Assembly (NCBI GenBank): GCA_964489065.1 | Contig: CAZAXH010000003.1 | Location: 127,104 to 191,103 of the forward strand | From: an uncultured Planctomycetales bacterium | Lineage (GTDB): Bacteria > Omnitrophota > Gorgyraeia > Zapsychrales > JANLHA01 | DNA length: 64,000 bases | Reading direction: 5' to 3' | The notes under the pieces: generated by a model | Database searches by the model: none | Seen by the model: the letters and a program-made list of their open reading frames with translations, nothing else | Told to the model about the DNA's origin: nothing | Shown: positions 4,784 through 51,223 of the stretch, piece by piece | How the letters are laid out: each line of letters starts with the position of its first letter | Numbering within the stretch: the stretch's first letter is position 1 | Program-made: the position numbers and the translations under genes

Positions 4784-5638
4784 ATGTTCAAAAAACGATT
4801 TATAGCCATCATTCTGCTGTCATTCCTGTTGGCATCCTGCGCTACGTCGGAAACCAATTCAATTCAGATTAAGGGGTCGGACACGATGGTGAACCTGGTT
4901 CAGGCTTGGGCGGAAAAATATATGGAAAAAAGCCCGGGCGCTTTTGTGGCCGTCACCGGAGGGGGGTCGGGGACCGGGTTGTCCAGTTTGATCAGCGGGA
5001 CCTGCGATATCGCCATGAGTTCCCGGAATATCAAGGACAAGGAACTTGCTTTAGCGGAAAAGCAAGGGATTCATGCCTACGAGATTAAAGCGGCTTTAGA
5101 TGGCTTGGCGGTCGTGGTCAACCCCCAAAACCCGGTTGATCGTTTGACCCTGGATCAACTCGCCGCCGTTTTTACCGGAAAGATTGTCAATTGGAAAGAA
5201 TTAGGCGGCACCGACGAGAGGATCGTGCTCCTTTCCCGGGAGGTGAATTCCGGAACACATGTTTATTTTAAGGAACATGTGTTAAGAAAGAATAACCCTG
5301 ATTCCCAGGAGGAGTTTGCCCCGAGCGCCTTGATGCTTTCTTCTTCCCAAGCCATCGCGGATGAGGTTGCCGGGAACTCCGCCGCCATTGGGTATTACGG
5401 CATGGGTTATGTTTCCGCCAGCCAAAAACCGGTTGCGGTCGCGCAGGAGACCAGCGGGGAATATGTCTTGCCTTTGATCGAAAACGTTATGAACGGGACG
5501 TATCCGATTTCCCGGCCGCTTTTTCTGTATACCAACGGTACCCCCTCGAGTTTGGTCGGGGCATTTATCGATTTCGCGCTTTCCCCGGAAGGGCAGGACA
5601 TTGTGCGTGTCATGGATTTTGTCCCGCTTGCGGAATAA
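4784..5638 (+). CDS. pstS: Phosphate ABC transporter substrate-binding lipoprotein PstS
   Basis: Lipoprotein signal LLASCA; PstS/PBP-type fold motifs (GSDTMVNL..., SGTH); first gene of the pstSCAB order. Confidence 0.85.
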   Translation: MFKKRFIAIILLSFLLASCATSETNSIQIKGSDTMVNLVQAWAEKYMEKSPGAFVAVTGGGSGTGLSSLISGTCDIAMSSRNIKDKELALAEKQGIHAYEIKAALDGLAVVVNPQNPVDRLTLDQLAAVFTGKIVNWKELGGTDERIVLLSREVNSGTHVYFKEHVLRKNNPDSQEEFAPSALMLSSSQAIADEVAGNSAAIGYYGMGYVSASQKPVAVAQETSGEYVLPLIENVMNGTYPISRPLFLYTNGTPSSLVGAFIDFALSPEGQDIVRVMDFVPLAE

Positions 5639-13701: not shown

Positions 13702-14115
13702 ATGACTTTGGAACGGGTAAAATATATTTTTTTGACAGTCAGCGTTCTGTGCGCGGGGGCGCTGAGTTGCCTCTTTATCTTGATGGGGGTTCGGATGGCT
13801 CTTGCGGGCGGACTGTTTTCTCCTCCGGTGGCGCTGCCTCTGTTTTGGTGGGGAGAGTGGGGAGTCTGCTGGGGTGGGTTTTGCGGGTGGCTGTGGGGTA
13901 AAAAACTTTTTCGCGCGTTGGGCCGGGATTCCTGTCTGGACGCAGGGATGAGGTATGGGCTTTACGCTGGTTTGATGATTGGGACTGTTAATGCCGCGTT
14001 AACCGGGACTTTGCCGTTTGGTTTTGTTTTGGGTATTTTTTTGGGCCCGGCCTTTGGCGTTCTTATGACTGTTTTCGGGAAAAAGATGCTCGCCCGAATT
14101 TCAAGGAGCATTTAG
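13702..14115 (+). CDS. Small Trp/Gly-rich integral membrane protein
   Basis: 137 aa, about 4 hydrophobic segments; unusual WWGEWGVCWGGFCGWLWGKK segment. Confidence 0.5.
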   Translation: MTLERVKYIFLTVSVLCAGALSCLFILMGVRMALAGGLFSPPVALPLFWWGEWGVCWGGFCGWLWGKKLFRALGRDSCLDAGMRYGLYAGLMIGTVNAALTGTLPFGFVLGIFLGPAFGVLMTVFGKKMLARISRSI

Positions 14116-14237
14116 TTTACACGACCAAAGGGAGTGTAAACTAAAAATGCGAATTGATCCTTCAGCGCGAGAGAGCTAAAGCGAACGAGCCGAAGGATGG
14201 TGGTTTAATACCCCGTAGCTTGCTCTGGAGGCTATCC
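14107..14237 (+). repeat. Intergenic structured repeat family R1, copy A (contains a 12-bp perfect stem tttagtttacac/gtgtaaactaaa)
   Basis: Near-identical to copy B over about 110 nt (14107-14215 vs 14338-14447); related copy at 47077-47199. Confidence 0.8.
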
Positions 14238-14337
14238 TTTGATTGTTATGTGGTTGAGGCGCCGGATTGTTTACGGAAAAGACTAAAAGTATGCTTCTGG
14301 GTTGTGTTGTGATATAATCAAAATCCAAATTATTTAA

Positions 14338-14497
14338 TGAGCATTGATTTTACACGCCCCAAGGGAGTGTAAACTAAAAATGCGAATTGATCCTTCAGCG
14401 CGAGAGAGCTAAAGCGAACGAGCCGAAGGATGGTGGTTTAATACCTCGCAGCTTGCTTTGGTTCATTAAATTTAGAGTTTGCTCCGGGGTTTATGCC
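14338..14497 (+). repeat. R1 repeat copy B, with a 3' extension carrying two small CTTG/TTTG-loop hairpins and a GGGGTTTAT tail
   Basis: Direct repeat of copy A; its 3' part matches copy C (ggttcatt...agcttgct...ggggtttat); about 35 nt upstream of glnS. Confidence 0.8.
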
Positions 14498-14533
14498 GCT
14501 GATTTTAAAAATTGATAAAAACAGGAACCCAGC

Positions 14534-16288
14534 ATGTCGTCCCATGAAAATTTTATAAAAAATCCGGGAAAAGATCCTTCCCCGGATTCAACACAATCGA
14601 AAAGCTCCGCGGATTTTATACGGGGCATTGTCGCGGAGGACATCGCCTCCGGGAAACACGGAGGAAAAGTCGTAACCAGGTTCCCTCCGGAACCCAATGG
14701 GTATTTGCATATCGGGCATGCGAAGTCGATTTGTCTGAACTTCGGCATTGCCAAAGAAAACAACGGAATTTGTCATTTGCGTTTTGATGACACTAATCCG
14801 TGCAAGGAAGAAGATGAATACGTGCAGTCTATCCAGAACGATGTGCGCTGGCTTGGGTTTGACTGGAAGGACAAGCTTTTTTTTGCCTCCGATTATTTTG
14901 AACAGTTATACCAATACGCGGAGCAACTGATTAAGCTCGGTCGGGCTTATGTGGACAGCCAGAGCGCGGAAGATATCCGGCGGACCCGGGGAACCCTGAC
15001 AGACGCAGGGCAGGAGAGCCCTTACCGGAACCGTTCGGTTGAGGAGAATCTGGATTTGTTTCGGCGGATGAGGCGCGGTGAATATGAAGAAGGGCAGCAT
15101 GTGGTGCGGGCGAAAATAGACATGGCGTCTCCCAACATCAATATGCGGGACCCGACGATTTTCCGCATTCGAAAGGCGTCTCATCACCGCACCGGGACGC
15201 AGTGGTGCGTTTACCCTATGTATGATTTCGCGCATTGTCTTTCCGACGCCATAGAAGGGATTACTCATTCGATCTGCACTCTGGAATTTGAAAACCACCG
15301 TCCCCTGTATGACTGGTTTCTGAATGAGCTGAAGACGCCTTGCCATCCGCAGCAGATTGAGTTTGCCCGGCTGAACCTGACGTATACCGTTATGAGCAAA
15401 AGAAAATTGCTCGAACTCGTATCCGGGCGATATGTCAGCGGGTGGGACGATCCGCGCATGCCGACTTTGTCAGGGTTGCGCCGCCGGGGATACACTCCGG
15501 CGGCGATTCGGACTTTCTGCGAACGCATCGGGGTCGCGAAAATGGAGGGAACCGTGGATGTCAGCTTCCTGGAACATTGCCTGCGGGAAGACTTGAATAA
15601 AAGGGCTTTGCGCGTCTTTGCGGTTTTGCACCCCTTGAAAGTCGTGATCACGAATTATCCTGAAGGGCAAACTGAAGAACTGGAAGCCGTGAATAACCCG
15701 GAAGACCCCCAATCCGGGACGCGGCGGGTGCGTTTTTCCCGGGTCCTTTATATTGAGAAAGACGATTTCCGGGAAAATCCCCCGCCTAAATTTTACCGTC
15801 TTTCTCCCGGGCAGGAGGTCCGCCTGCGATATGCTTATTTTATTACCTGCCAAGAGGTGATTAAAGACAGGAATGGGGAAGTGACGGAGCTGCGGTGCAC
15901 CTACGACCCGGCCTCTAAGGGAGGGGATTCTCCGGATGGACGTAAAGTCAAGGCGACCCTGCATTGGGTTTCGGCTGAGCACGCTTTTGATGCCGAGGTT
16001 CGGCTGTACGACTATCTTTTTTCAAAACCCGATCCGTCTGACACCGAAAATGGGCAGGATTACAAAGAGAACCTTAACCCGAACTCATTAGAAATTTTAC
16101 GGAATTGTAAAATGGAAGAGTTTTTACGCCAGGCCCAGGCGGGTGTTTCTTACCAGTTTGAACGGCTTGGCTATTTTTGTGTTGATCCCGTTGACGGCAC
16201 TTCCGGCCGGCCGGTTTTTAACCGCACCGTCACGCTGCGGGATTCCTGGGCCAAAATTGAAAAATCTCAAAAAAATAATGGTTTATAA
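14534..16288 (+). CDS. glnS: Glutaminyl-tRNA synthetase
   Basis: Class I aaRS HIGH motif ([14 protein letters not shown]) and VMSKR (KMSKS); close match to the known GlnRS N-terminal region ([13 protein letters not shown]...[15 protein letters not shown]). Confidence 0.9.
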
Positions 16289-43595: not shown

Positions 43596-44843
43596 ATGCC
43601 AAAAAAACGGAACGCCGAGGCCGCTTTAAACATCTCTCATGCGGAAGAGCTGAAGATATTACGACAGATCGTCGATATAACATCTGCGGAGATGGACCTG
43701 GCGCGGACGCTGAAAGAGGTCGTTGGAATTGTCAACGACACGACCCAGGCGGATTCGGTTTTTATCTATCTTTTTGACGAAAGAAAAACAAATTTAACCT
43801 TAATGGCCTCCAAGCTGCCGCACAAAAAAATGCTGGGGCATCTTGTCCTGAAAGTTGGGGAGGGCATTACCGGGTGGGTGGCCCAGGAAAATAAGCCAGT
43901 GGCCATCAGCCAGAACGCCTGCCAGGACGCCCGGTTCAAGAATTTTGATGTTTTGCCGGAAGACCGATATGAAGCCTTCCTGTCCGTCCCTATTGTTTAT
44001 AAGGGGAAGGCGATCGGGGTTATTAATGTCCAGCATAAAAAGCCGCATAATTACAGTGCTCAGACGGTCAATATTATCTGCACGATCGCCAAGCAGGTCG
44101 GGGGGGTGATTGAACACGCTGTTCTTTATGAGCACATTAAGCAGAAAGCCAAGCAGTTTGACAGCCTGGTTAAAGTGAGCCAGTCGATCACTTCGGAAAA
44201 TTATCTGGATGAAATTTTAAACCTGATCGTTGTGGTGACAGCGGAGATGCTGAATTCCAAAATTTGTTCGATCCTCCTTTTGGATGACAGGAAAGAAAAG
44301 GAGCTTGTGATTAAAGCCACGCAGAGTTTGAGTGAGGAATATAAACAGAAACCGAACCTGAATGTGGACCGCAGCCTTTTGGGGGAGGTGATTAAATGCA
44401 AGAAACCGTTGGTGTGTCAGGATGTCCGGCAGGAACAGAAATATTTTTATCGCGACCTGGCGGTGAAAGAAAACCTGACTTCGATGATTGCGGTCCCCAT
44501 GATTGTTAAAGATACCGCGATCGGGGTAATCAATGTATATACCAAAGAGCCGCATGTGTTTACGGATGAGGAAATAGGGGTTTTGCAGATGGTGGCTAAC
44601 CAGGCGGCGGTCGCGGTGGAAAATACCAAGTTGATGCAGGAAGCCCTTAAGGCTAAAGAGGCCCTGGAAACGCGTAAACTTGTCGAGCGAGCTAAAGGCA
44701 TTTTGATGCGCATGAACAATCTTTCCGAGCAGGCCGCGTACCGGTTGATCCATAAAAAGAGCATGGATACCTGCCGTTCCATGAAGGAGATTGCGGAATC
44801 CGTTATTCTCATGGATGAATTGAGCTCCGCAAGCTCCTCATAA
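43596..44843 (+). CDS. GAF-GAF-ANTAR RNA-binding antitermination regulator
   Basis: Two GAF domains followed by a C-terminal ANTAR motif (KLVERAKGILMRMNNLSEQAAYRLIHKKSMDTCRSMKEIAESVI); directly upstream of the amt leader. Confidence 0.75.
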   Translation: MPKKRNAEAALNISHAEELKILRQIVDITSAEMDLARTLKEVVGIVNDTTQADSVFIYLFDERKTNLTLMASKLPHKKMLGHLVLKVGEGITGWVAQENKPVAISQNACQDARFKNFDVLPEDRYEAFLSVPIVYKGKAIGVINVQHKKPHNYSAQTVNIICTIAKQVGGVIEHAVLYEHIKQKAKQFDSLVKVSQSITSENYLDEILNLIVVVTAEMLNSKICSILLLDDRKEKELVIKATQSLSEEYKQKPNLNVDRSLLGEVIKCKKPLVCQDVRQEQKYFYRDLAVKENLTSMIAVPMIVKDTAIGVINVYTKEPHVFTDEEIGVLQMVANQAAVAVENTKLMQEALKAKEALETRKLVERAKGILMRMNNLSEQAAYRLIHKKSMDTCRSMKEIAESVILMDELSSASSS

Positions 44844-44944
44844 AAAGATGTCTTGAGGGCTCCGGAGAAACAGGAAACCGGGGGGCGCGTGGCTGTTGTT
44901 CGTCGTCGGAAATGTAGGGATTTTTTGCTGAAAATAAAAATACC

Positions 44945-44973
44945 TTGACAAAAGATTGCGGAAATATTATATT
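44945..44973 (+). promoter_or_regulatory. Sigma70-type promoter for the amt operon (TTGACA-17-TATATT)
   Basis: TTGACA 44945-44950, 17-nt spacer, TATATT 44968-44973. Confidence 0.55.
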
Positions 44974-45013
44974 TTAACCAGACCATTGACGGTTTATCAT
45001 AACGGGCAAAGAA

Positions 45014-45046
45014 GTCCGGATTCTGTATAAGACTCCGGGCTTTTTT
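45014..45046 (+). terminator. Leader intrinsic terminator T1 upstream of amt (7-bp stem with G·U, 13-nt loop, T6)
   Basis: gtccgga/tccgggc pairing 45014-45020/45034-45040 followed by ttttttattttt. Confidence 0.55.
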
Positions 45047-45063
45047 ATTTTTGGGCATTGATG

Positions 45064-45103
45064 TCCTCTTCATGGCAGGTGTTCTGCGGAAGAGGATTTT
45101 TTT
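45064..45103 (+). terminator. Leader intrinsic terminator T2 upstream of amt (8+4-bp interrupted stem, T7)
   Basis: tcctcttc/gaagagga 45064-45071/45089-45096 with inner gcag/ctgc, followed by ttttttt 45097-45103. Confidence 0.65.
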
Positions 45104-45232
45104 ATGTTTAAAGAGTGGACACAGGGGTCCATCACGAGCAAAGACAGCTTGCGGGTCCGTTGGCGGGGCAGAGTACTTTAATAAAAAAGACGTTGGGTCC
45201 GGGGCAGTCCCGGATCAAGAGGAGGAAAAGAC

Positions 45233-46621
45233 ATGTTTGGAAAAAAGATGAAGACTCTCCCTGTGCTCGCGATTGTCCTGGGTCTTGGGATGATGCTTTG
45301 CGCTGGCTCAGGAATGGCGGAAGAGCCGACCGTAGCCGGTAACGCTGCGGCTTTGGCTGAAAAAAGTGTGGCCCTGGACACCGTGTGGACGCTTATCGCC
45401 GGAATGCTGGTCATGTTCATGCAGGCCGGGTTTGCGATGGTGGAAACCGGGTTTACCCGGGCAAAGAATGCCTGCAATATTATGATGAAAAATTTGCTTG
45501 ATTTTACGGTTGGTGCGGTTATTTACTGGGCTATTGGCTTTGGGATTATGTTTGGGGCCGGGAATTTGTTCTTTGGGACAAGCGGATTTTTCCTGGCTGA
45601 TAGCGGAAGCACGTTTGCTTCTTTAGATTGGAGCAGCGTTTCCTTGGCGTGTAAATATTTCTTTCAGATGGTGTTTGCCGCGACCGCCGCGACGATTGTT
45701 TCCGGGGCCATGGCGGAACGCACTAAATTTTCTGCTTATTTGGTATACAGCGTGGTGATCAGCGCGTTGATTTATCCTGTCGTTGGCCATTGGATATGGG
45801 GCGGCGGCTGGCTGGCGGGAATAGGAATGTGGGATTTTGCCGGGTCAACGGTTGTGCATTCCACAGGGGCCTGGATGGCGCTGGTGGGGGCGATTATGTT
45901 GGGCCCGCGGCTGGGAAAATATCGTGCCGACGGCACTTCCAACGCGATCCCAGGGCATAATATCCCGCTGGCGACCCTGGGGGTTTTTATTCTCTGGTTT
46001 GGGTGGTATGGCTTTAACCCCGGAAGCACGATGGCGGCCGTTCCGGCTATTGGGCATATCGCCATGACGACAACGATTGCCGCGGCGGTCGGCGTTAACG
46101 TGGCGATGGTGACATCCTGGTTTATGTTTTCTAAACCGGATATTTCTATGGCGTTAAACGGTGGGCTGGCAGGCCTGGTGGCGATCACGGCCGGGTGCGC
46201 CTTCGTGTCTCCGGGCAGCGCGGCGTTGATTGGACTGGTGGCCGGTGTCCTGGTTGTCCTGTCCGTGGTTATGCTCGACAAAGTTTTTCATATTGATGAT
46301 CCGGTCGGGGCCGTGTCAGTTCACGGGGTTTGCGGTATCTGGGGCACCCTGGCGGTCGGGCTTTTTGCGCAGGACGTTTTTTCTCCGGGGACGACCGGAA
46401 ACGGGTTGTTTTTCGGCGGAGGAATAAAGTTGTTTATGTCTCAGTTAGCCGGCGTGGGCGCAGTCATGGTTTGGTGTCTTGTTACCGGAATTGTCCTTTT
46501 CTCGGTTATTAAAGCGACAATCGGATTACGGGTGAGTAAAGAAGAAGAATTGCGGGGCCTGGATATTGATGAGCATGGCATGGAGGCTTATTCCGGGTTC
46601 CAGATTTTTACAACGGAATAG
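45233..46621 (+). CDS. amt: Ammonium transporter (Amt family), copy 1, with signal peptide
   Basis: Amt/MEP signature regions ([42 protein letters not shown]); 462 aa. Confidence 0.9.
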
Positions 46622-46627
46622 TCAGAC

Positions 46628-46654
46628 GGGGGCGTCGGGTCTCCCGACGCCCCC
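46628..46654 (+). other. GC-rich perfect hairpin (11-12 bp) between amt1 and the PII gene, no U-tract
   Basis: gggggcgtcggg/cccgacgccccc inverted repeat; read directly. Confidence 0.6.
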
Positions 46655-46704
46655 GGGACAGTGATATAAAAAGACGATTTAAATACGATAAGGAGGAATG
46701 TCCC

Positions 46705-47046
46705 ATGAAATTAATTATTGCCATGATTCAGCCGCATAAGTTGCCGGATGTGAAAAAAGAGCTTTTTGCTGCGGATGTCCATAAAATGACAGTGACAAAT
46801 GTTCTCGGTTGTGGTCAGCAGAAAGGGTATAACGAAACATACCGGGGTGTTGTACACGAGGTGAATTTGCTGAAGAAAGTCCGTTTGGAAATCGCGGTTA
46901 ATGAAAATTTTGTTAAGCCGACGATTGACGCGATTATCCGCGGCGCCAAGACGGGCAAGATCGGAGACGGCAAGATATTTGTACTCGATTTGCCGGAATG
47001 CATCCGGGTCCGAACCGGGGAAAGAGGAAGCGAAGCCATAGGATGA
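46705..47046 (+). CDS. glnK: PII-family nitrogen regulatory protein (amt-linked, divergent T-loop)
   Basis: 113 aa PII fold ([13 protein letters not shown]...[14 protein letters not shown]...GDGKIFV); sits between two amt genes. Confidence 0.75.
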
Positions 47047-47076
47047 TGGAGCGTAAGGCGTCTCCCCATGATTCAA

Positions 47077-47199
47077 TGAGCATTTAGTTTGCACGACCGA
47101 AGGGAGTGAGCCCAAGCGAACGAGTCAAAGGATGTTGGTTTAATACCCAGCAGCTTGCTGCGGTTCATTGAGTCCAGAGCTTGCTCTGGGGTTTATACC
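47077..47199 (+). repeat. R1 repeat copy C, between glnK and amt2
   Basis: Shares the 5' block (gagcatttagttt.cacgacc.aagggagtg), the middle block (agcgaacgag.c.aaggatg.tggtttaatacc) and the 3' block (agcttgct...ggttcatt...agcttgctctggggtttata) with copies A and B. Confidence 0.75.
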
Positions 47200-47234
47200 T
47201 TGATTGGATCAGGACATAACATAAGGAGGGAAGT

Positions 47235-48572
47235 GTGACACACAGGAACCGCGTTAAATTATTGTTGCTGATCGGGGCGGCTTTTTGGGCTGGCCCGGTT
47301 GGCCAGGCCTCGGCAGATGCCGGAACTATTCCCAGCGTTACAGGGCTGGACACCCTGTGGGTGTTGATAACCGCTTTTTTGGTTTTTTTTATGCAGGCGG
47401 GCTTCGGGATGGTGGAGGCGGGTTTTATCCGGGCGAAAAACACCTGTAACATATTGACGAAGAATTTTATGGATTTCTGTATGGCGTCGTTGGGTTATTT
47501 TATGTTCGGTTATGCCATTATGTTCGGGGAGGGGAACGGGTTCCTCGGAGTTAAAGGCTGGTTTTTAGCGGGCGCGGAATCAGGCGCCAGTATCCCTCTT
47601 TATGCCTTTTGGCTTTTTCAGGCGGCCTTTTGCGGGGCCGCAGCCACGATCGTGGCCGGAGGCATGGCAGAACGGATGAAGTTTCAGGGGTACTTGATTT
47701 ATTCTTTTGTCATTTCAGCATTTATTTATCCGATCGTCGGGCATTGGGTTTGGGGCGGCGGCTGGCTGTCGAAGCTGGGGTTTGCGGATTTTGCCGGATC
47801 AACGGTGGTGCATTCCCTGGGCGGTTTCGCTGCGCTGATCGGGACGATGATCCTGAAGCCGCGGACCGGAAAATACAACCCGGACGGATCGGTCAATGCT
47901 ATTGCCGGACACAATATTCCCCTGGCGTCCTTAGGGGTCTTTATCCTGTGGTTCGGATGGTTTGGTTTTAATCCAGGGTCTACGTTGTCTGTCGGGGACG
48001 GCAGTCTGATCGCCCGGGTGGCGATTAACACAAATTTGGCGGCGGCTGCGGGAGGGATAGCGGCGATCATCACGGTGTGGAAAATGTTCGGTAAGCCGGA
48101 TCTGTCCATGGCCATGAATGGCGCCTTGGCCGGGTTGGTTGCGGTTACCGCGCCCTGCGCTTTTGTTGACCCCTGGGCCGCCATTATGATCGGCGCCATC
48201 GGCGGGGTTATTGTCGTGTGCGGTGTTGTTTTTTTGGACCGTCTTCGGATCGATGATCCGGTCGGGGCCGTCCCTGTTCATGGGTTTAATGGTTTTTGGG
48301 GGACCGTTGCCGTCGGGATTTTCGGTCGCCAATCCTTGGGCCTGGCGCACGACGGGCTGTTGTATGGAGGAGGATTGTCTCAACTGGGAATTCAACTCCT
48401 GGGTGTCACGGCGGCTGTCGTTTTTATCTTGGTGACCATGGGGGCGTTGTTCAAGCTGATTGACGCCACTGTTGGGTTGCGGGTTACCGTTGAAGAGGAG
48501 CACCGTGGCCTGGATATCGGCGAACATGGCATGGAATCCTATTCAGGATTTCAGATTTTTACGACATCATAA
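47235..48572 (+). CDS. amt: Ammonium transporter (Amt family), copy 2
   Basis: 445 aa; same Amt signatures ([36 protein letters not shown]). Confidence 0.9.
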   Translation: MTHRNRVKLLLLIGAAFWAGPVGQASADAGTIPSVTGLDTLWVLITAFLVFFMQAGFGMVEAGFIRAKNTCNILTKNFMDFCMASLGYFMFGYAIMFGEGNGFLGVKGWFLAGAESGASIPLYAFWLFQAAFCGAAATIVAGGMAERMKFQGYLIYSFVISAFIYPIVGHWVWGGGWLSKLGFADFAGSTVVHSLGGFAALIGTMILKPRTGKYNPDGSVNAIAGHNIPLASLGVFILWFGWFGFNPGSTLSVGDGSLIARVAINTNLAAAAGGIAAIITVWKMFGKPDLSMAMNGALAGLVAVTAPCAFVDPWAAIMIGAIGGVIVVCGVVFLDRLRIDDPVGAVPVHGFNGFWGTVAVGIFGRQSLGLAHDGLLYGGGLSQLGIQLLGVTAAVVFILVTMGALFKLIDATVGLRVTVEEEHRGLDIGEHGMESYSGFQIFTTS

Positions 48573-48649
48573 ACAAATTGTTTGCTGTTTTTTAGGGAGA
48601 AAACGTCCCGGTTTGAATCTGGTGGCAAGGAGAGGAGGAGAGAAGCGGT

Positions 48650-48790
48650 ATGTTAGCGACGACTATAATGATGGTTTCTTTGGGGGCGCTGTTTTGGGTG
48701 TTTAAAAAATACTTGTGGCTGAAAATGTTTTACACAAAAGAATCTCTCGTCGCTGCTTTAAGAAGAGAGAGCGAAGAGAAGGCAACTTGA
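48650..48790 (+). CDS. Possible 46-aa single-TM micro-protein (MLATTIMMVSLGALFWVFKKYLWLKMFYTKESLVAALRRESEEKAT)
   Basis: Strong RBS (AGGAGAGGAGGAGAG) 8 nt upstream of the ATG; hydrophobic core; below the ORF-track size cut-off. Confidence 0.35.
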   Translation: MLATTIMMVSLGALFWVFKKYLWLKMFYTKESLVAALRRESEEKAT

Positions 48791-48873
48791 ACTAGCCTTT
48801 TTTATCTGTCTTTGAAGAAAACCACGGGCATGCCCGTGGAGGGGTGCGGGAGGGTAACAATGTCCTCTGCTTC

Positions 48874-48954
48874 CGGGATGTTCGTGCATATGTTGAGACA
48901 CTTGATCATTCCGCGAAGCAAGGATTAACAGGGATCGCGCCCGTGGGCGTGGCG
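48874..48954 (+). repeat. R2 repeat copy 3, upstream of glnN
   Basis: CGGGATGTTCGTGCATATGTTGAGACACTTGATCATTCCGCGAAGCAAGGATTAACAGGGATCGCGCCCGTGGGCGTGGCG aligns with copies 1 and 2. Confidence 0.6.
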
Positions 48955-49117
48955 ATCTGTGAAATTCAAGCTTCATAAAAAAGATGGGACGTCGTTAATA
49001 ATGGAACGCGGCGGGCCTGAAAATATTTCCCATTTGGGGGCTTCTGTGTTTTATAATAATCTAATTTTTAGAACGCAGAGAGCTTCGGAATGGATAAATT
49101 AAACATGGAGGAAAAAG

Positions 49118-51223
49118 ATGGAAGAAAGACTCGAACATTTGGGAGGACAAACAGTTTCTGATATTTATGGCCAGAATGTTTTTAGCCTTAAGGCCATGCG
49201 GAATTATCTTTCAGAAAAGGCGTTTCAGTCCTTGAGCAAAACGATCAAAGAAGGCGGGCCGCTTGATCCCGGCATTGCGGATGAGGTGGCTGACGCGATG
49301 AAAACCTGGGCTGTTTCCAAGGGGGCTACGCATTTTACGCACTGGTTTCAGCCGTTAACCGGCACGACCGCGGAAAAACATGACTCATTTATCGTTCCGG
49401 ATGGCGAGGGCGGGGTCCTTCTGGATTTTTCAGGCAAAGAGTTGATTCAGGGCGAGCCGGATGCGTCCAGTTTTCCATCCGGAGGGTTGCGATGGACATT
49501 TGAAGCCCGGGGTTACACGGGGTGGGATCCGACGAGCCCGGCTTTTATTAAAGAAGGGCCACAATGCGCCACACTTTGCATTCCGACCTATTTCATCGGC
49601 TGGAACGGAGAGGCGTTGGATAAGAAGACTCCTCTTTTGCGCTCCATGAAAGCGCTTTCCAAACAGGTTTGTCGGCTGGCCGGCTTGTTCGGCATTGAAA
49701 CCAAAGGCAAACAGGCTTATGCTACGCTGGGCGGTGAACAGGAATATTTTCTTATTGACCGCGAATATTACCTGCAGCGCATTGACCTGATTCAGACAGG
49801 CCGCACGCTTTTCGGGAAGGAACCGGCTAAACATCAGCAGATGGCTGACCATTATTTTGGTGCTATTAAGGGCCGTATTATGGGTTTTATGGAAGATTTT
49901 GACCGGGAGATGTGGAGGCTCGGGGTTCCCACCAAGACGCGCCATAATGAGGTGGCGCCTGGACAATATGAAGTCGCTCCGATTTTTGAGAGCCTGAACC
50001 TGGCTGTGGATCACAATATGCTTTGTATGGAGGTCATGAAACGGGTTGCCGAGCAGCATGGGTTGGTGTGTCTCCTGCATGAAAAGCCTTTTGCCGGGGT
50101 TAACGGTTCGGGGAAACATAATAATTGGGCTATCGTTGGGCCAGACGGAAAGAACTGGCTGGATCCGGGTGATAATCCCCATGAAAATGCCAAATTCCTC
50201 GTTACCCTGTGTGCGGTGATTAAGGCCGTGGACACGCATGCCGGCGTGTTGCGTTCGTCGGTGGCGACAGCGGGTAATGATCACAGATTGGGATCGCATG
50301 AGGCGCCTCCGGCGATTATTTCTATTTTTCTCGGCGAACAGCTTACGGATATTATTGAGCAGATTGAAAAGGGAGAAGCCAAGCATTCTAAATCCGGCGG
50401 AGTCCTTGAGATTGGCGTGGATTCTTTGCCCAACCTCCCGCGTCACGCGACTGACCGGAACCGCACATCCCCGTTTGCTTTCACCGGGTCAAAATTTGAG
50501 TTCCGGGCGGTGGGGTCCAATATGAGTCTAGCCGGTCCGAATATTATTTTGAACACGATCGTGGCCGATGCTATCGGCGATATTTGTTCCCAGTTGGAAA
50601 AAGACTTGAGTGCGAAAAAGGATTTTAACGCCTCTTTGCAGAAAATTTTGAAAAATATCATCAAAACGCACAAACGGATTATTTTTAACGGAGATAATTA
50701 CACGGAAGCCTGGGTGAAGGAAGCCGATCAACGGGGACTCCCGAATCTAAAAAACACTCCGGAAGCCCTGGCCGTGATGAGCGACCCTGAGGTGGCTAGT
50801 CTTTTTGAGCGACACGGTGTTTTAACGAAGAAGGAACTGGCGTCCCGCAACGAGGTGTATCTTGAAGCCTACAATACAACTATTGATTATGAGGCCAAGC
50901 TTTCCGTGGACATGGTCAAGACCCTGATTATGCCTGCGGTGTTTAATTATCAGGAAGATTTGGCGGAGAGTATTAAGTCAGCGGAGTCCGTCAACAAGTT
51001 TAAATCTACGGCGTCCCGTAAACTGCTCGCGGAAATCACCCGGGAGGCGGAAGCGGCATTGAAAAAAACAGATAAACTCCAGGCGGCCATTGATAAAGGA
51101 GCCGCTTTAAAGACGAAGGCAGCCATGGGAGACCTGCGTCTCACGATCGATACTCTGGAAGGCCTGGTTCCGGCTGATTATTGGCCGTTGCCGTCTTACG
51201 CGGAGATGTTGTTTATTGTTTAA
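49118..51223 (+). CDS. glnN: Glutamine synthetase type III
   Basis: 701 aa (GSIII size); GSIII-like N-terminal region and catalytic-domain blocks (NGSGKHNNWA, HEAPPAIISIFLG). Confidence 0.8.
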   Translation: MEERLEHLGGQTVSDIYGQNVFSLKAMRNYLSEKAFQSLSKTIKEGGPLDPGIADEVADAMKTWAVSKGATHFTHWFQPLTGTTAEKHDSFIVPDGEGGVLLDFSGKELIQGEPDASSFPSGGLRWTFEARGYTGWDPTSPAFIKEGPQCATLCIPTYFIGWNGEALDKKTPLLRSMKALSKQVCRLAGLFGIETKGKQAYATLGGEQEYFLIDREYYLQRIDLIQTGRTLFGKEPAKHQQMADHYFGAIKGRIMGFMEDFDREMWRLGVPTKTRHNEVAPGQYEVAPIFESLNLAVDHNMLCMEVMKRVAEQHGLVCLLHEKPFAGVNGSGKHNNWAIVGPDGKNWLDPGDNPHENAKFLVTLCAVIKAVDTHAGVLRSSVATAGNDHRLGSHEAPPAIISIFLGEQLTDIIEQIEKGEAKHSKSGGVLEIGVDSLPNLPRHATDRNRTSPFAFTGSKFEFRAVGSNMSLAGPNIILNTIVADAIGDICSQLEKDLSAKKDFNASLQKILKNIIKTHKRIIFNGDNYTEAWVKEADQRGLPNLKNTPEALAVMSDPEVASLFERHGVLTKKELASRNEVYLEAYNTTIDYEAKLSVDMVKTLIMPAVFNYQEDLAESIKSAESVNKFKSTASRKLLAEITREAEAALKKTDKLQAAIDKGAALKTKAAMGDLRLTIDTLEGLVPADYWPLPSYAEMLFIV

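Follow-up and report, generated by a model that had tools for sequence, protein, structure and literature searches.

A GAF-GAF-ANTAR regulator adjoins a leader predicted to be its antitermination target

The 64-kb stretch of DNA analyzed here (64,000 nucleotides of contig CAZAXH010000003.1, from an uncultured bacterium of the phylum Omnitrophota; hereafter the window) encodes a one-component regulator in which two GAF sensor domains are joined to an ANTAR RNA-binding domain. The regulator gene is followed on the same strand by a leader containing a promoter, small hexaloop hairpins and two intrinsic terminators, and then by the ammonium transporter gene amt, the P-II gene glnK and a second amt. 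We propose, with a probability of about three in four, that the regulator antiterminates this leader and in this way controls ammonium uptake. This reading is supported by the domain content of the protein, its RNA-contact residues, the anatomy of the leader motif, synteny in about 43 of 59 orthologous Omnitrophota loci (531 kb fetched in total; cited below by number, as in L001), covariation and strand bias. The coordinates of all features are collected in Table 1.

The leader contains a dual-hexaloop and a single-hexaloop unit

The 389-nt spacer between the regulator gene and amt holds the promoter, the terminators T1 and T2 and the small hairpins. The promoter matches the sigma-70 consensus at 11 of 12 positions, the best site of the scanned region, and is invariant in the close relatives L001-L003; its -10 hexamer ends 6 nt before the first small hairpin, P1. 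Both terminators were found by folding and are likewise kept in L001-L003, and the leader as a whole (44975-45240) folds with z = -4.9 relative to shuffled sequences.

P1 and the hairpin that follows it after 7 nt, P2, each present a loop with A at position 1 (A1) and G at position 4 (G4), and the 5′ arm of T1 includes the whole 3′ arm of P2 (45014-45018). An ANTAR target has been defined as two stems of at least 3 bp with A1 and G4 in their loops, a short linker and overlap with a terminator; linkers in E. faecalis are 5-12 nt long, and function suffers at 3 nt or 14 nt (Ramesh et al. 2012, PMC3369931). Every one of these features is present in P1-P2, as is co-occurrence with an ANTAR gene, the regulator lying directly upstream of the leader in the window and in most of the 59 loci. 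P1-P2 is thus a predicted canonical ANTAR dual-hexaloop antiterminator acting on T1. The hairpin at 45053-45066, placed directly after the T1 U tract, shares all four of its 3′-arm bases (45063-45066) with the 5′ arm of T2 and is predicted to be a separate single-hexaloop unit for T2; the same hairpin, again directly 3′ of the T1 U tract, recurs in more than 20 leaders. The small hairpins are far weaker (about -6 kcal/mol for P2 and -4.6 kcal/mol for 45053-45066) than the terminators (-20.8 and -18.1 kcal/mol), as would be expected if the leader is off by default and a protein is needed for read-through.

A preliminary description of this locus, made from the sequence, had placed the promoter, the two strong terminators and hairpins at 44982-44993 and 45053-45066 where we find them (P1 in its full extent covers 44980-44995), and had noted the overlap of the second hairpin with T2. 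It overlooked P2, a third small hairpin, and paired P1 with the hairpin at 45053-45066 as one dual site. That pairing was dropped once P2 was seen at 45003-45018, 7 nt from P1 and its actual partner. The "atypical" spacing of about 60 nt reported earlier, a gap of 57 nt, came from pairing the wrong hairpins. We also considered whether the apical loop of a terminator could serve as an A..G.. hexaloop second hairpin, but only 6 of 82 predicted loops fit (6 of the 16 hexaloops) and neither T1 nor T2 is among them. Such apical hexaloops are seen in terminators of L005, L009, L011, L032, L036 and L051 and, by minimum free energy, are not general.

Clustering, strand bias and covariation of the hairpin motif

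The strict motif GG[GA]C-A..G..-G[TC]CC (GGRC-A..G..-GYCC) was scanned on both strands of the window and occurred three times, all on the plus strand (45004, 45053 and 45117) and within 130 nt of the leader, with about 0.67 occurrences expected. The octamer CATTGAYG was rejected as a window-wide signature (7 occurrences, 4.3 expected, not enriched), and the stem-plus-loop pattern was used instead. Over the 59 loci the motif was found 96 times on the regulator strand versus twice on the opposite strand, and in 81 of the 96 the 3′ arm of the hairpin also serves as the start of an overlapping terminator stem. With the loop left unconstrained, G4 was present in 82 of 83 hairpins, A1 in 62 and A5 in 66. 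The stem arms were GGGC/GUCC in 59 cases, GGAC/GUCC in 12, GGGC/GCCC in five and GGAC/GCCC in four, the last of which would set A against C at the third pair.

A covariance model of the dual hairpin built from 24 seeds (model R1) matches 44976-45026 of the window (E 3.7e-9) and recovers sites outside its seeds in L039, L031, L026, L024, L033 and L005 (E ≤2e-5). Pairing in the P1 helix reaches 98% over 29 homologous sites, with compensatory changes on both sides in eight of nine pairs; the covariation score was reached by none of 500 shuffles, and all slid registers scored far lower. Because the loops are 6-8 nt long, the 3′ arm of P2 was misregistered in the MAFFT alignment; the P2 pair counts (84% paired) are therefore unreliable, and P2 was read directly instead. 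A second model (R2), built from distant loci without the window and its three close relatives and run with filters off, gave its top score in the window to 44976-45026 (20.4 bits, E 9e-4), ahead of a runner-up at 12.5 bits. Each of the 29 dual-hairpin leaders is preceded within 150 nt by a sigma-70 promoter matching at 11-12 of 12 positions, while only 5% of control segments reach even 10 of 12. The leader hairpins are clustered, strand-specific and covarying, beyond what chance would be expected to give.

A possible third pair lies further downstream (45115-45151), with a 2-nt linker, the ANTAR-like loops ACAGGG and AAAGACA and no terminator. It is kept in L001-L003 only, and neither model R1 (E up to 1) nor model R2 (E up to 10) gave a match covering it. 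The preliminary description had suggested searching for hexaloop hairpins upstream of glnN, nadE and the copies of a repeat that it named "R1" (distinct from the model of that name); neither the pattern scan nor model R2 found a further site in the window, including at these places.

The gene order that links the motif to the regulator is widely conserved. Downstream of the regulator gene, and on its strand, lie amt, glnK, glnN or nadE in 40 of the 59 loci and the gene for a NirB-type nitrite reductase in three more, and no second ANTAR gene was found in the window or in the fetched loci. The regulator protein is represented by more than 100 clusters at 71-96% identity, labeled Candidatus Omnitrophota wherever the source names them. 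Some records of orthologues that are 72-77% identical (L006, L011, L012, L015, L018 and others) are titled "uncultured Planctomycetales", and one orthologue (P0015) is labeled "Pacearchaeota archaeon". These are probably mislabeled or misbinned, because all other relatives are Omnitrophota.

The regulator combines an ANTAR output with tandem GAF domains

Failure of the C-terminal region to match ANTAR models had been named beforehand as a possible refutation of the reading. The region matches PF03861 with 72 bits (cut-off 27.3) over profile positions 3-54 of 54, which places it in the family, and its PDB matches are to Rv1626, EutV and NasR. In the EutV-RNA structure, R142, K149, E160 and Y164 read the flipped-out G4, M172 plugs the loop, and a loop with N173, R175 and R177 contacts the RNA backbone (PMC8934654). 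EutV residues R142, K143, K149, E160, Y164 and M172 have identical counterparts in R360, K361, K367, E378, Y382 and M390 of the regulator, and K147 is conservatively replaced by R365. These equivalents are invariant in 31 orthologues except for Y382, which is tyrosine in 25 and histidine in six. By sequence the regulator is a bona fide ANTAR protein, and RNA binding is predicted.

The N-terminal part of open reading frame 43596-44843 matches Pfam GAF_2 (6.4e-40) in two stretches, which together with PF03861 bears out the one-component GAF-GAF-ANTAR architecture proposed earlier. GAF1 is closest to the GAF domain of PtsP (EI-Ntr). It matches PDB entries 3ci6 (E 1.4e-24) and 3trc (2.7e-18) and NCBIfam PRK11061 (6.9e-39, profile positions 2-169 of 748, 133.7 bits versus a cut-off of 583), and its best single-domain Foldseek match is a PtsP GAF (template-modeling score 0.85-0.89, root-mean-square deviation 2.4-2.6 Å, 33-34% identity). 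GAF2 is closest to the N-terminal GAF domain of NifA: NCBIfam TIGR01817 (nifA) matches residues 186-378 on profile positions 2-192 of 534 (1.1e-29), with 103.6 bits versus a cut-off of 529. The protein cannot be classed as PtsP or as NifA, since the match to these profiles is confined to their GAF parts; it has neither the phosphoenolpyruvate (PEP)-utilizing enzyme I domains of the one nor the AAA+ and helix-turn-helix (HTH) domains of the other. No match to a receiver (REC) domain or to a NIT domain was found in the regulator, the N-terminus being made up of the two GAF domains, and only the ANTAR part aligns to NasR (4akk). It falls outside the REC-ANTAR group (EutV, GnfR, Rv1626), the NIT-ANTAR group (NasR) and the AmiR group. 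Weaker NCBIfam matches are to the GAF domains of NreA, FhlA and NorR.

The AlphaFold model of the regulator (mean predicted local distance difference test score 79) shows two GAF folds with a 41-residue helix (155-195) between them and a 51-residue helix (324-374) that runs into a three-helix ANTAR domain, with further helices at 378-392 and 396-413. The best overall Foldseek matches are helix-linked tandem GAF modules of PDE2, PDE5, PDE6 and CyaB2, at 14-18% identity. As for possible ligands, glutamine is bound by the PtsP GAF domain, and glutamine and 2-oxoglutarate have reciprocal effects on the autophosphorylation of EI-Ntr (PMC4848567 and its references 22 and 36); the NifA GAF domain is described as binding 2-oxoglutarate (PMC8219145 and its references 14 and 15). 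By analogy, the tandem GAF module may read glutamine and/or 2-oxoglutarate directly. This is the weakest step of the mechanism proposed below, and we hold it tentatively, at somewhat less than even odds. The preliminary description had called the system ligand-gated, which is plausible given a PtsP-like GAF1 and a NifA-like GAF2, with glutamine and 2-oxoglutarate as candidate ligands.

Proposed mechanism and alternatives

From its consensus and conservation, the sigma-70-type promoter is probably strong and constitutive, and would transcribe the amt-glnK-amt leader with P1 at or very near the 5′ end of the RNA. By default, as the folding energies predict, the transcript would end at T1 or else at T2. 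Family membership, the conserved G4-reading residues and the linkage between gene and RNA suggest that the GAF-GAF-ANTAR protein encoded upstream would bind P1 and P2 and then the hairpin at 45053-45066. Binding would stabilize these weak 4-5-bp hairpins and withhold their GUCC 3′ arms, which make up the base of each terminator stem, beside the U tract. With these arms withheld the terminators could not be completed, and RNA polymerase would read into amt. Under nitrogen limitation (high 2-oxoglutarate and/or low glutamine) the tandem GAF module would release the ANTAR domains, and two attenuators in series would keep the operon tightly off when nitrogen is plentiful. The overlap geometry, the conservation and the covariation on which this scheme builds are observed directly.

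Several points weigh against the scheme. RNA binding, termination and ligand binding are all steps that we infer. The hairpin ahead of T2 has no partner within 20 nt, and EutV antitermination needs correctly spaced P1 and P2 and is abolished by a 20-nt extension of the linker (PMC8934654), so that the case for a functional T2 unit is made by conservation. P1 begins only about 6 nt past the -10 hexamer, which puts its 5′ arm at the very 5′ end of the transcript. The backbone-contact loop between helices alpha7 and alpha8 differs from that of EutV (MDTCRSM, with D391, C393, R394 and S395, versus MNKRARM). The likeness of the GAF domains to those of PtsP and NifA amounts to only 30-34% identity, and GAF ligand specificity cannot be predicted from family resemblance. 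Lastly, glnN in the window has no ANTAR motif of its own by pattern scan or model R2. The preliminary description had extended antitermination control from ammonium uptake to this gene, which encodes glutamine synthetase III (GS-III). All of the computational evidence supports the former for amt-glnK-amt, while control of glnN in the window is uncertain.

The terminators lie 165-260 nt past the stop codon of the regulator gene, and tandem terminators do occur after genes, so T1 and T2 could be ordinary constitutive terminators of the regulator transcript with small hairpins formed by chance. We find this hardly credible: the promoter stands between the stop codon and T1 and has its like in every dual-hairpin leader, the motif is more than a chance assembly for the reasons given above, and hairpin-plus-terminator units also occur between glnK and glnN or amt, far from the end of the regulator gene. 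It is also highly improbable that the leader, structured as it is, represents a metabolite riboswitch or is read by another factor, with the GAF-ANTAR gene merely adjoining it. Nitrogen-related riboswitches exist, but the whole window gave no Rfam match at the gathering score, and the best sub-threshold match in 44850-45300 (E up to 10) was L20_leader with 24.3 bits versus 58.7. The conserved parts are ANTAR-type hexaloop hairpins and terminators only, with no conserved ligand pocket, and the linkage to an ANTAR gene holds in about 43 of the 59 loci with no other ANTAR gene nearby. Negative action, in which binding to the hairpins (those at 45115-45151 included) would repress translation or destabilize the mRNA, has a precedent in the ANTAR translational repression described for actinobacteria, with mycobacterial targets (PMC8164766; bioRxiv 10.1101/660928). 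It would account for a hairpin pair that has no terminator, and for a motif hairpin in L025 whose 3′ arm is complementary to a ribosome-binding site. However, the overlap of 81 of the 96 motif hairpins with the 5′ base of an intrinsic terminator is a geometry in which protein binding would be antiterminating, and about 70 nt separate the last motif hairpin from the ribosome-binding site and start codon of amt further downstream (45220-45235). Negative action is accordingly judged improbable.

A different kind of alternative keeps antitermination as proposed and changes the signal, which could be contact with GlnK (P-II), a cyclic nucleotide, nitrate, nitric oxide or redox state. P-II regulates some NifA GAF domains, and with glnK being part of the controlled operon in most loci a feedback loop would arise; in overall fold the protein is nearest to the cyclic-nucleotide-binding tandem GAF modules of PDE2, PDE5 and CyaB2; and there are the weaker matches to NreA, FhlA and NorR. 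On the other hand, the best sequence matches of GAF1 and GAF2 are specifically to PtsP and NifA, by many orders of magnitude, and the regulon is made up of genes for general nitrogen assimilation, as suits a read-out of glutamine and 2-oxoglutarate. We regard a signal of this other kind as unlikely, though a serious contender.

Single-hexaloop units and the wider regulon

Across the 59 loci, a partner hairpin within 20 nt was found in 30-34 of 80 hairpin-plus-terminator units (control rate 3-8%), which leaves about 46-50 units, more than half across the phylum, with a single hexaloop. EutV binds single hexaloops as well as the dual motif, but antiterminates only with P1 and P2 correctly spaced. 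If they work, single units depart from the characterized ANTAR systems, and the near-invariant GGGC/GUCC stem with its C-G closing pair may supply them with extra specificity.

The regulon suggested by the position of these units extends beyond amt, glnK and glnN. In at least nine other Omnitrophota loci glnN carries its own unit, and other genes found behind units encode a NirB-type assimilatory nitrite reductase, a 71-residue DUF2934 protein and a Gcw_chp outer-membrane-like protein (L006 at 3033; L050 at 1293 and 1342; L058 at 7005 and 7069; L002, L003 and L059; and L026, L028, L032 and L036 at about 5263-5316), as well as an 808-residue protein without a Pfam match in L030. In the close relatives one leader stands ahead of different genes. 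In L001 (5246-5870) it is fused upstream of glnN, without amt-glnK-amt, and in L002 and L003 (5237-6460) a gene for a 255-residue Gcw_chp porin-like protein lies between the leader and amt. The window has no Gcw_chp gene in the corresponding interval (45150-45232) and keeps a hairpin (45196-45216) before the ribosome-binding site, as is found before amt of L002. The sequence GGGUCCG...GGGGCAG occurs twice here (about 45153-45171 and 45195-45207), which may mark a deletion junction.

Two further observations concern units elsewhere in the set. In L025 (5408-5470) the hairpin GGGGC-AUUGAG-GCCUU has no terminator, and its 3′ arm GCCUUG is complementary to the amt ribosome-binding site CAAGGAG, which may indicate translational control by the GAF-GAF-ANTAR protein. 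In L003 the spacer between glnK and the second amt has an ANTAR dual hairpin and two terminators where the window has a repeat of about 130-165 nt, described in the next section.

A broader hypothesis is that the GAF-GAF-ANTAR family is the main nitrogen regulator of Omnitrophota, each polypeptide by itself reading glutamine and/or 2-oxoglutarate directly, through its PtsP-like and NifA-like GAF domains. It would control amt, glnK, glnN, nirB and other genes exclusively at stages later than initiation, with constitutive consensus promoters and mostly single-hexaloop GGGC/GUCC sites. We consider this conceivable but doubtful as a whole. If true, it would mean that one hexaloop is enough for ANTAR antitermination in vivo.

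Neighboring genes and other elements

Downstream of the second amt, glnN begins 545 nt on, with a promoter-like region of its own ahead of it; further genes on this strand encode a class-I glutamine amidotransferase (GATase) and NadE. The spacer before glnN (48573-49117) contains an 18-nt perfect palindrome (48822-48839) that reads as a terminator on the minus strand. The stretch from 49020 to the glnN start (49117) is common to the window and to L001 upstream of its glnN, and contains no ANTAR motif. The interval between amt and glnK holds a GC hairpin of very high stability (46627-46655), GGGGGCGUCGGG-UCU-CCCGACGCCCCC, which lacks a U tract and may be an intercistronic processing or stability element.

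An intergenic element of about 130-165 nt is repeated in the window with 84-92% identity, at 47072-47205, 14097-14240 and 14342-14500, all on the plus strand. One copy is in the spacer between glnK and the second amt, and two are in tandem upstream of the gene for a class Ic Glu/Gln-tRNA synthetase (14534-16288). This is probably the "R1" of the preliminary description. It has no Rfam match, its fold z is -2.6, and either a mobile repeat or a cis element related to glutamine is conceivable.

Table 1. Features of the regulator gene, leader and operon, in window coordinates.
Feature	Position	Strand	Description	Evidence
Regulator gene	43596..44843	+	415 residues; GAF1, long helix, GAF2, long helix, ANTAR	Pfam; AlphaFold model
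GAF1	43647..44123	+	residues 18-176; closest to PtsP/EI-Ntr GAF domain	
GAF2	44205..44621	+	residues 204-342 (best Pfam GAF_2 stretch); closest to NifA N-terminal GAF	
ANTAR domain (RNA-binding)	44652..44807	+	residues 353-404	PF03861, 3.2e-20
Sigma-70-type promoter	44945..44973	+	TTGACA-17-TATATT	11/12 consensus
P1 hairpin	44980..44995	+	AGACC-AUUGAC-GGUUU; 5-bp stem, hexaloop with A1 and G4	
P2 hairpin	45003..45018	+	CGGGC-AAAGAA-GUCCG; 5-bp stem, A1/G4 loop, 7 nt after P1	
Terminator T1	45008..45052	+	stem 45008-45046, core GUCCGGA/UCCGGGC; U tract 45041-45052	-20.8 kcal/mol
Single-hexaloop hairpin	45053..45066	+	GGGC-AUUGAU-GUCC; directly after T1 U tract	
Terminator T2	45063..45104	+	stem 45063-45097, UCCUCUUC/GAAGAGGA; U tract 45098-45104	-18.1 kcal/mol
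Possible third pair	45115..45151	+	GUGGAC-ACAGGG-GUCCAU + CGAGC-AAAGACA-GCUUG; 2-nt linker, no terminator	
amt	45233..46621	+	first gene behind the leader	Pfam Ammonium_transp, 6.7e-128
glnK (P-II)	46705..47046	+		Pfam P-II, 1.9e-27
Second amt	47235..48572	+		Pfam Ammonium_transp, 3e-131
glnN (GS-III)	49118..51223	+	downstream of second amt	

Relation to known ANTAR and GAF systems

GAF-ANTAR is a listed architecture (PMC3369931) and among the commonest for ANTAR proteins, and reviews up to 2025 list no member with a characterized signal or target (PMC7496416, PMC12591593). Our literature search likewise found no characterized GAF-ANTAR member, and nothing on regulation in Omnitrophota. The locus and its 59 relatives would provide a GAF-ANTAR protein with a defined RNA site, a testable ligand hypothesis and a defined regulon (amt, glnK, glnN, nirB, the porin-like Gcw_chp protein and DUF2934), which together form a first regulatory model for nitrogen assimilation in this uncultured phylum. 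The long-open question of what GAF-ANTAR proteins sense becomes directly testable at this locus, and about 50 natural single-hexaloop attenuators offer material for probing the revised "single hexaloop" model of ANTAR binding.

That ANTAR proteins antiterminate nitrogen genes is well known, and to our knowledge all characterized ANTAR regulators have a receiver or pseudo-receiver, a NIT or a PAS-LOV sensor. The nearest parallel for the RNA is EutV/EutW with the E. faecalis eut leaders (Ramesh et al. 2012, PMC3369931; Walshe et al. 2022, PMC8934654), which share with the present system the ANTAR output, the same G4-reading residues, dual A1/G4 hexaloops with a 5-12-nt linker, a P2 that shares bases with the 5′ arm of the terminator, and several attenuators in one regulon. 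Unlike the regulator described here, with its tandem GAF module in the same polypeptide, EutV has a REC domain phosphorylated via a partner kinase, and its targets are ethanolamine genes rather than ammonium uptake genes. The loop-adjacent stem is also nearly invariant here (GGGC/GUCC), and more than half of the units across the phylum have a single hexaloop. NasR, a NIT-ANTAR protein acting on the Klebsiella nasF leader, is, like the regulator as proposed here, a one-component ligand-sensing antiterminator that adjoins a nitrogen-assimilation operon and targets leader hexaloop hairpins, with a sensor that probably autoinhibits the ANTAR domain (PMC7496416). It differs in using a NIT sensor for nitrate and nitrite, where we find GAF-GAF, presumed to report general nitrogen status, and two terminators in series. 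In Geobacter, GnfK/GnfR controls general nitrogen genes or fixation genes by ANTAR antitermination at multiple sites per regulon (PMC2995071), but GnfR is a kinase-dependent response regulator, whereas no kinase would be required here, in the phylum Omnitrophota. In Firmicutes and Deltaproteobacteria, too, predicted ANTAR sites precede genes for P-II, amt and glutamine/glutamate synthase (PMC3369931).

On the sensor side, PtsP (EI-Ntr) and NifA provide the matches to GAF1 and GAF2, and their known domains report nitrogen status (glutamine, 2-oxoglutarate). There the GAF domains are attached to a PEP-utilizing enzyme or to AAA+/HTH domains, and here to a predicted RNA-binding output. The tandem GAF-A/GAF-B modules of PDE2, PDE5, PDE6 and the cyanobacterial adenylyl cyclase CyaB2, which typically form parallel dimers, resemble the regulator in having two GAF domains and long helices leading to the output domain. 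They bind cyclic nucleotides and are distant from it (14-18% identity), and nothing here points to cyclic nucleotides. What is familiar in the present system is its output mechanism, and what is new is the combination of sensors, the phylum, the tandem dual-plus-single attenuator design and the many single-hexaloop units.

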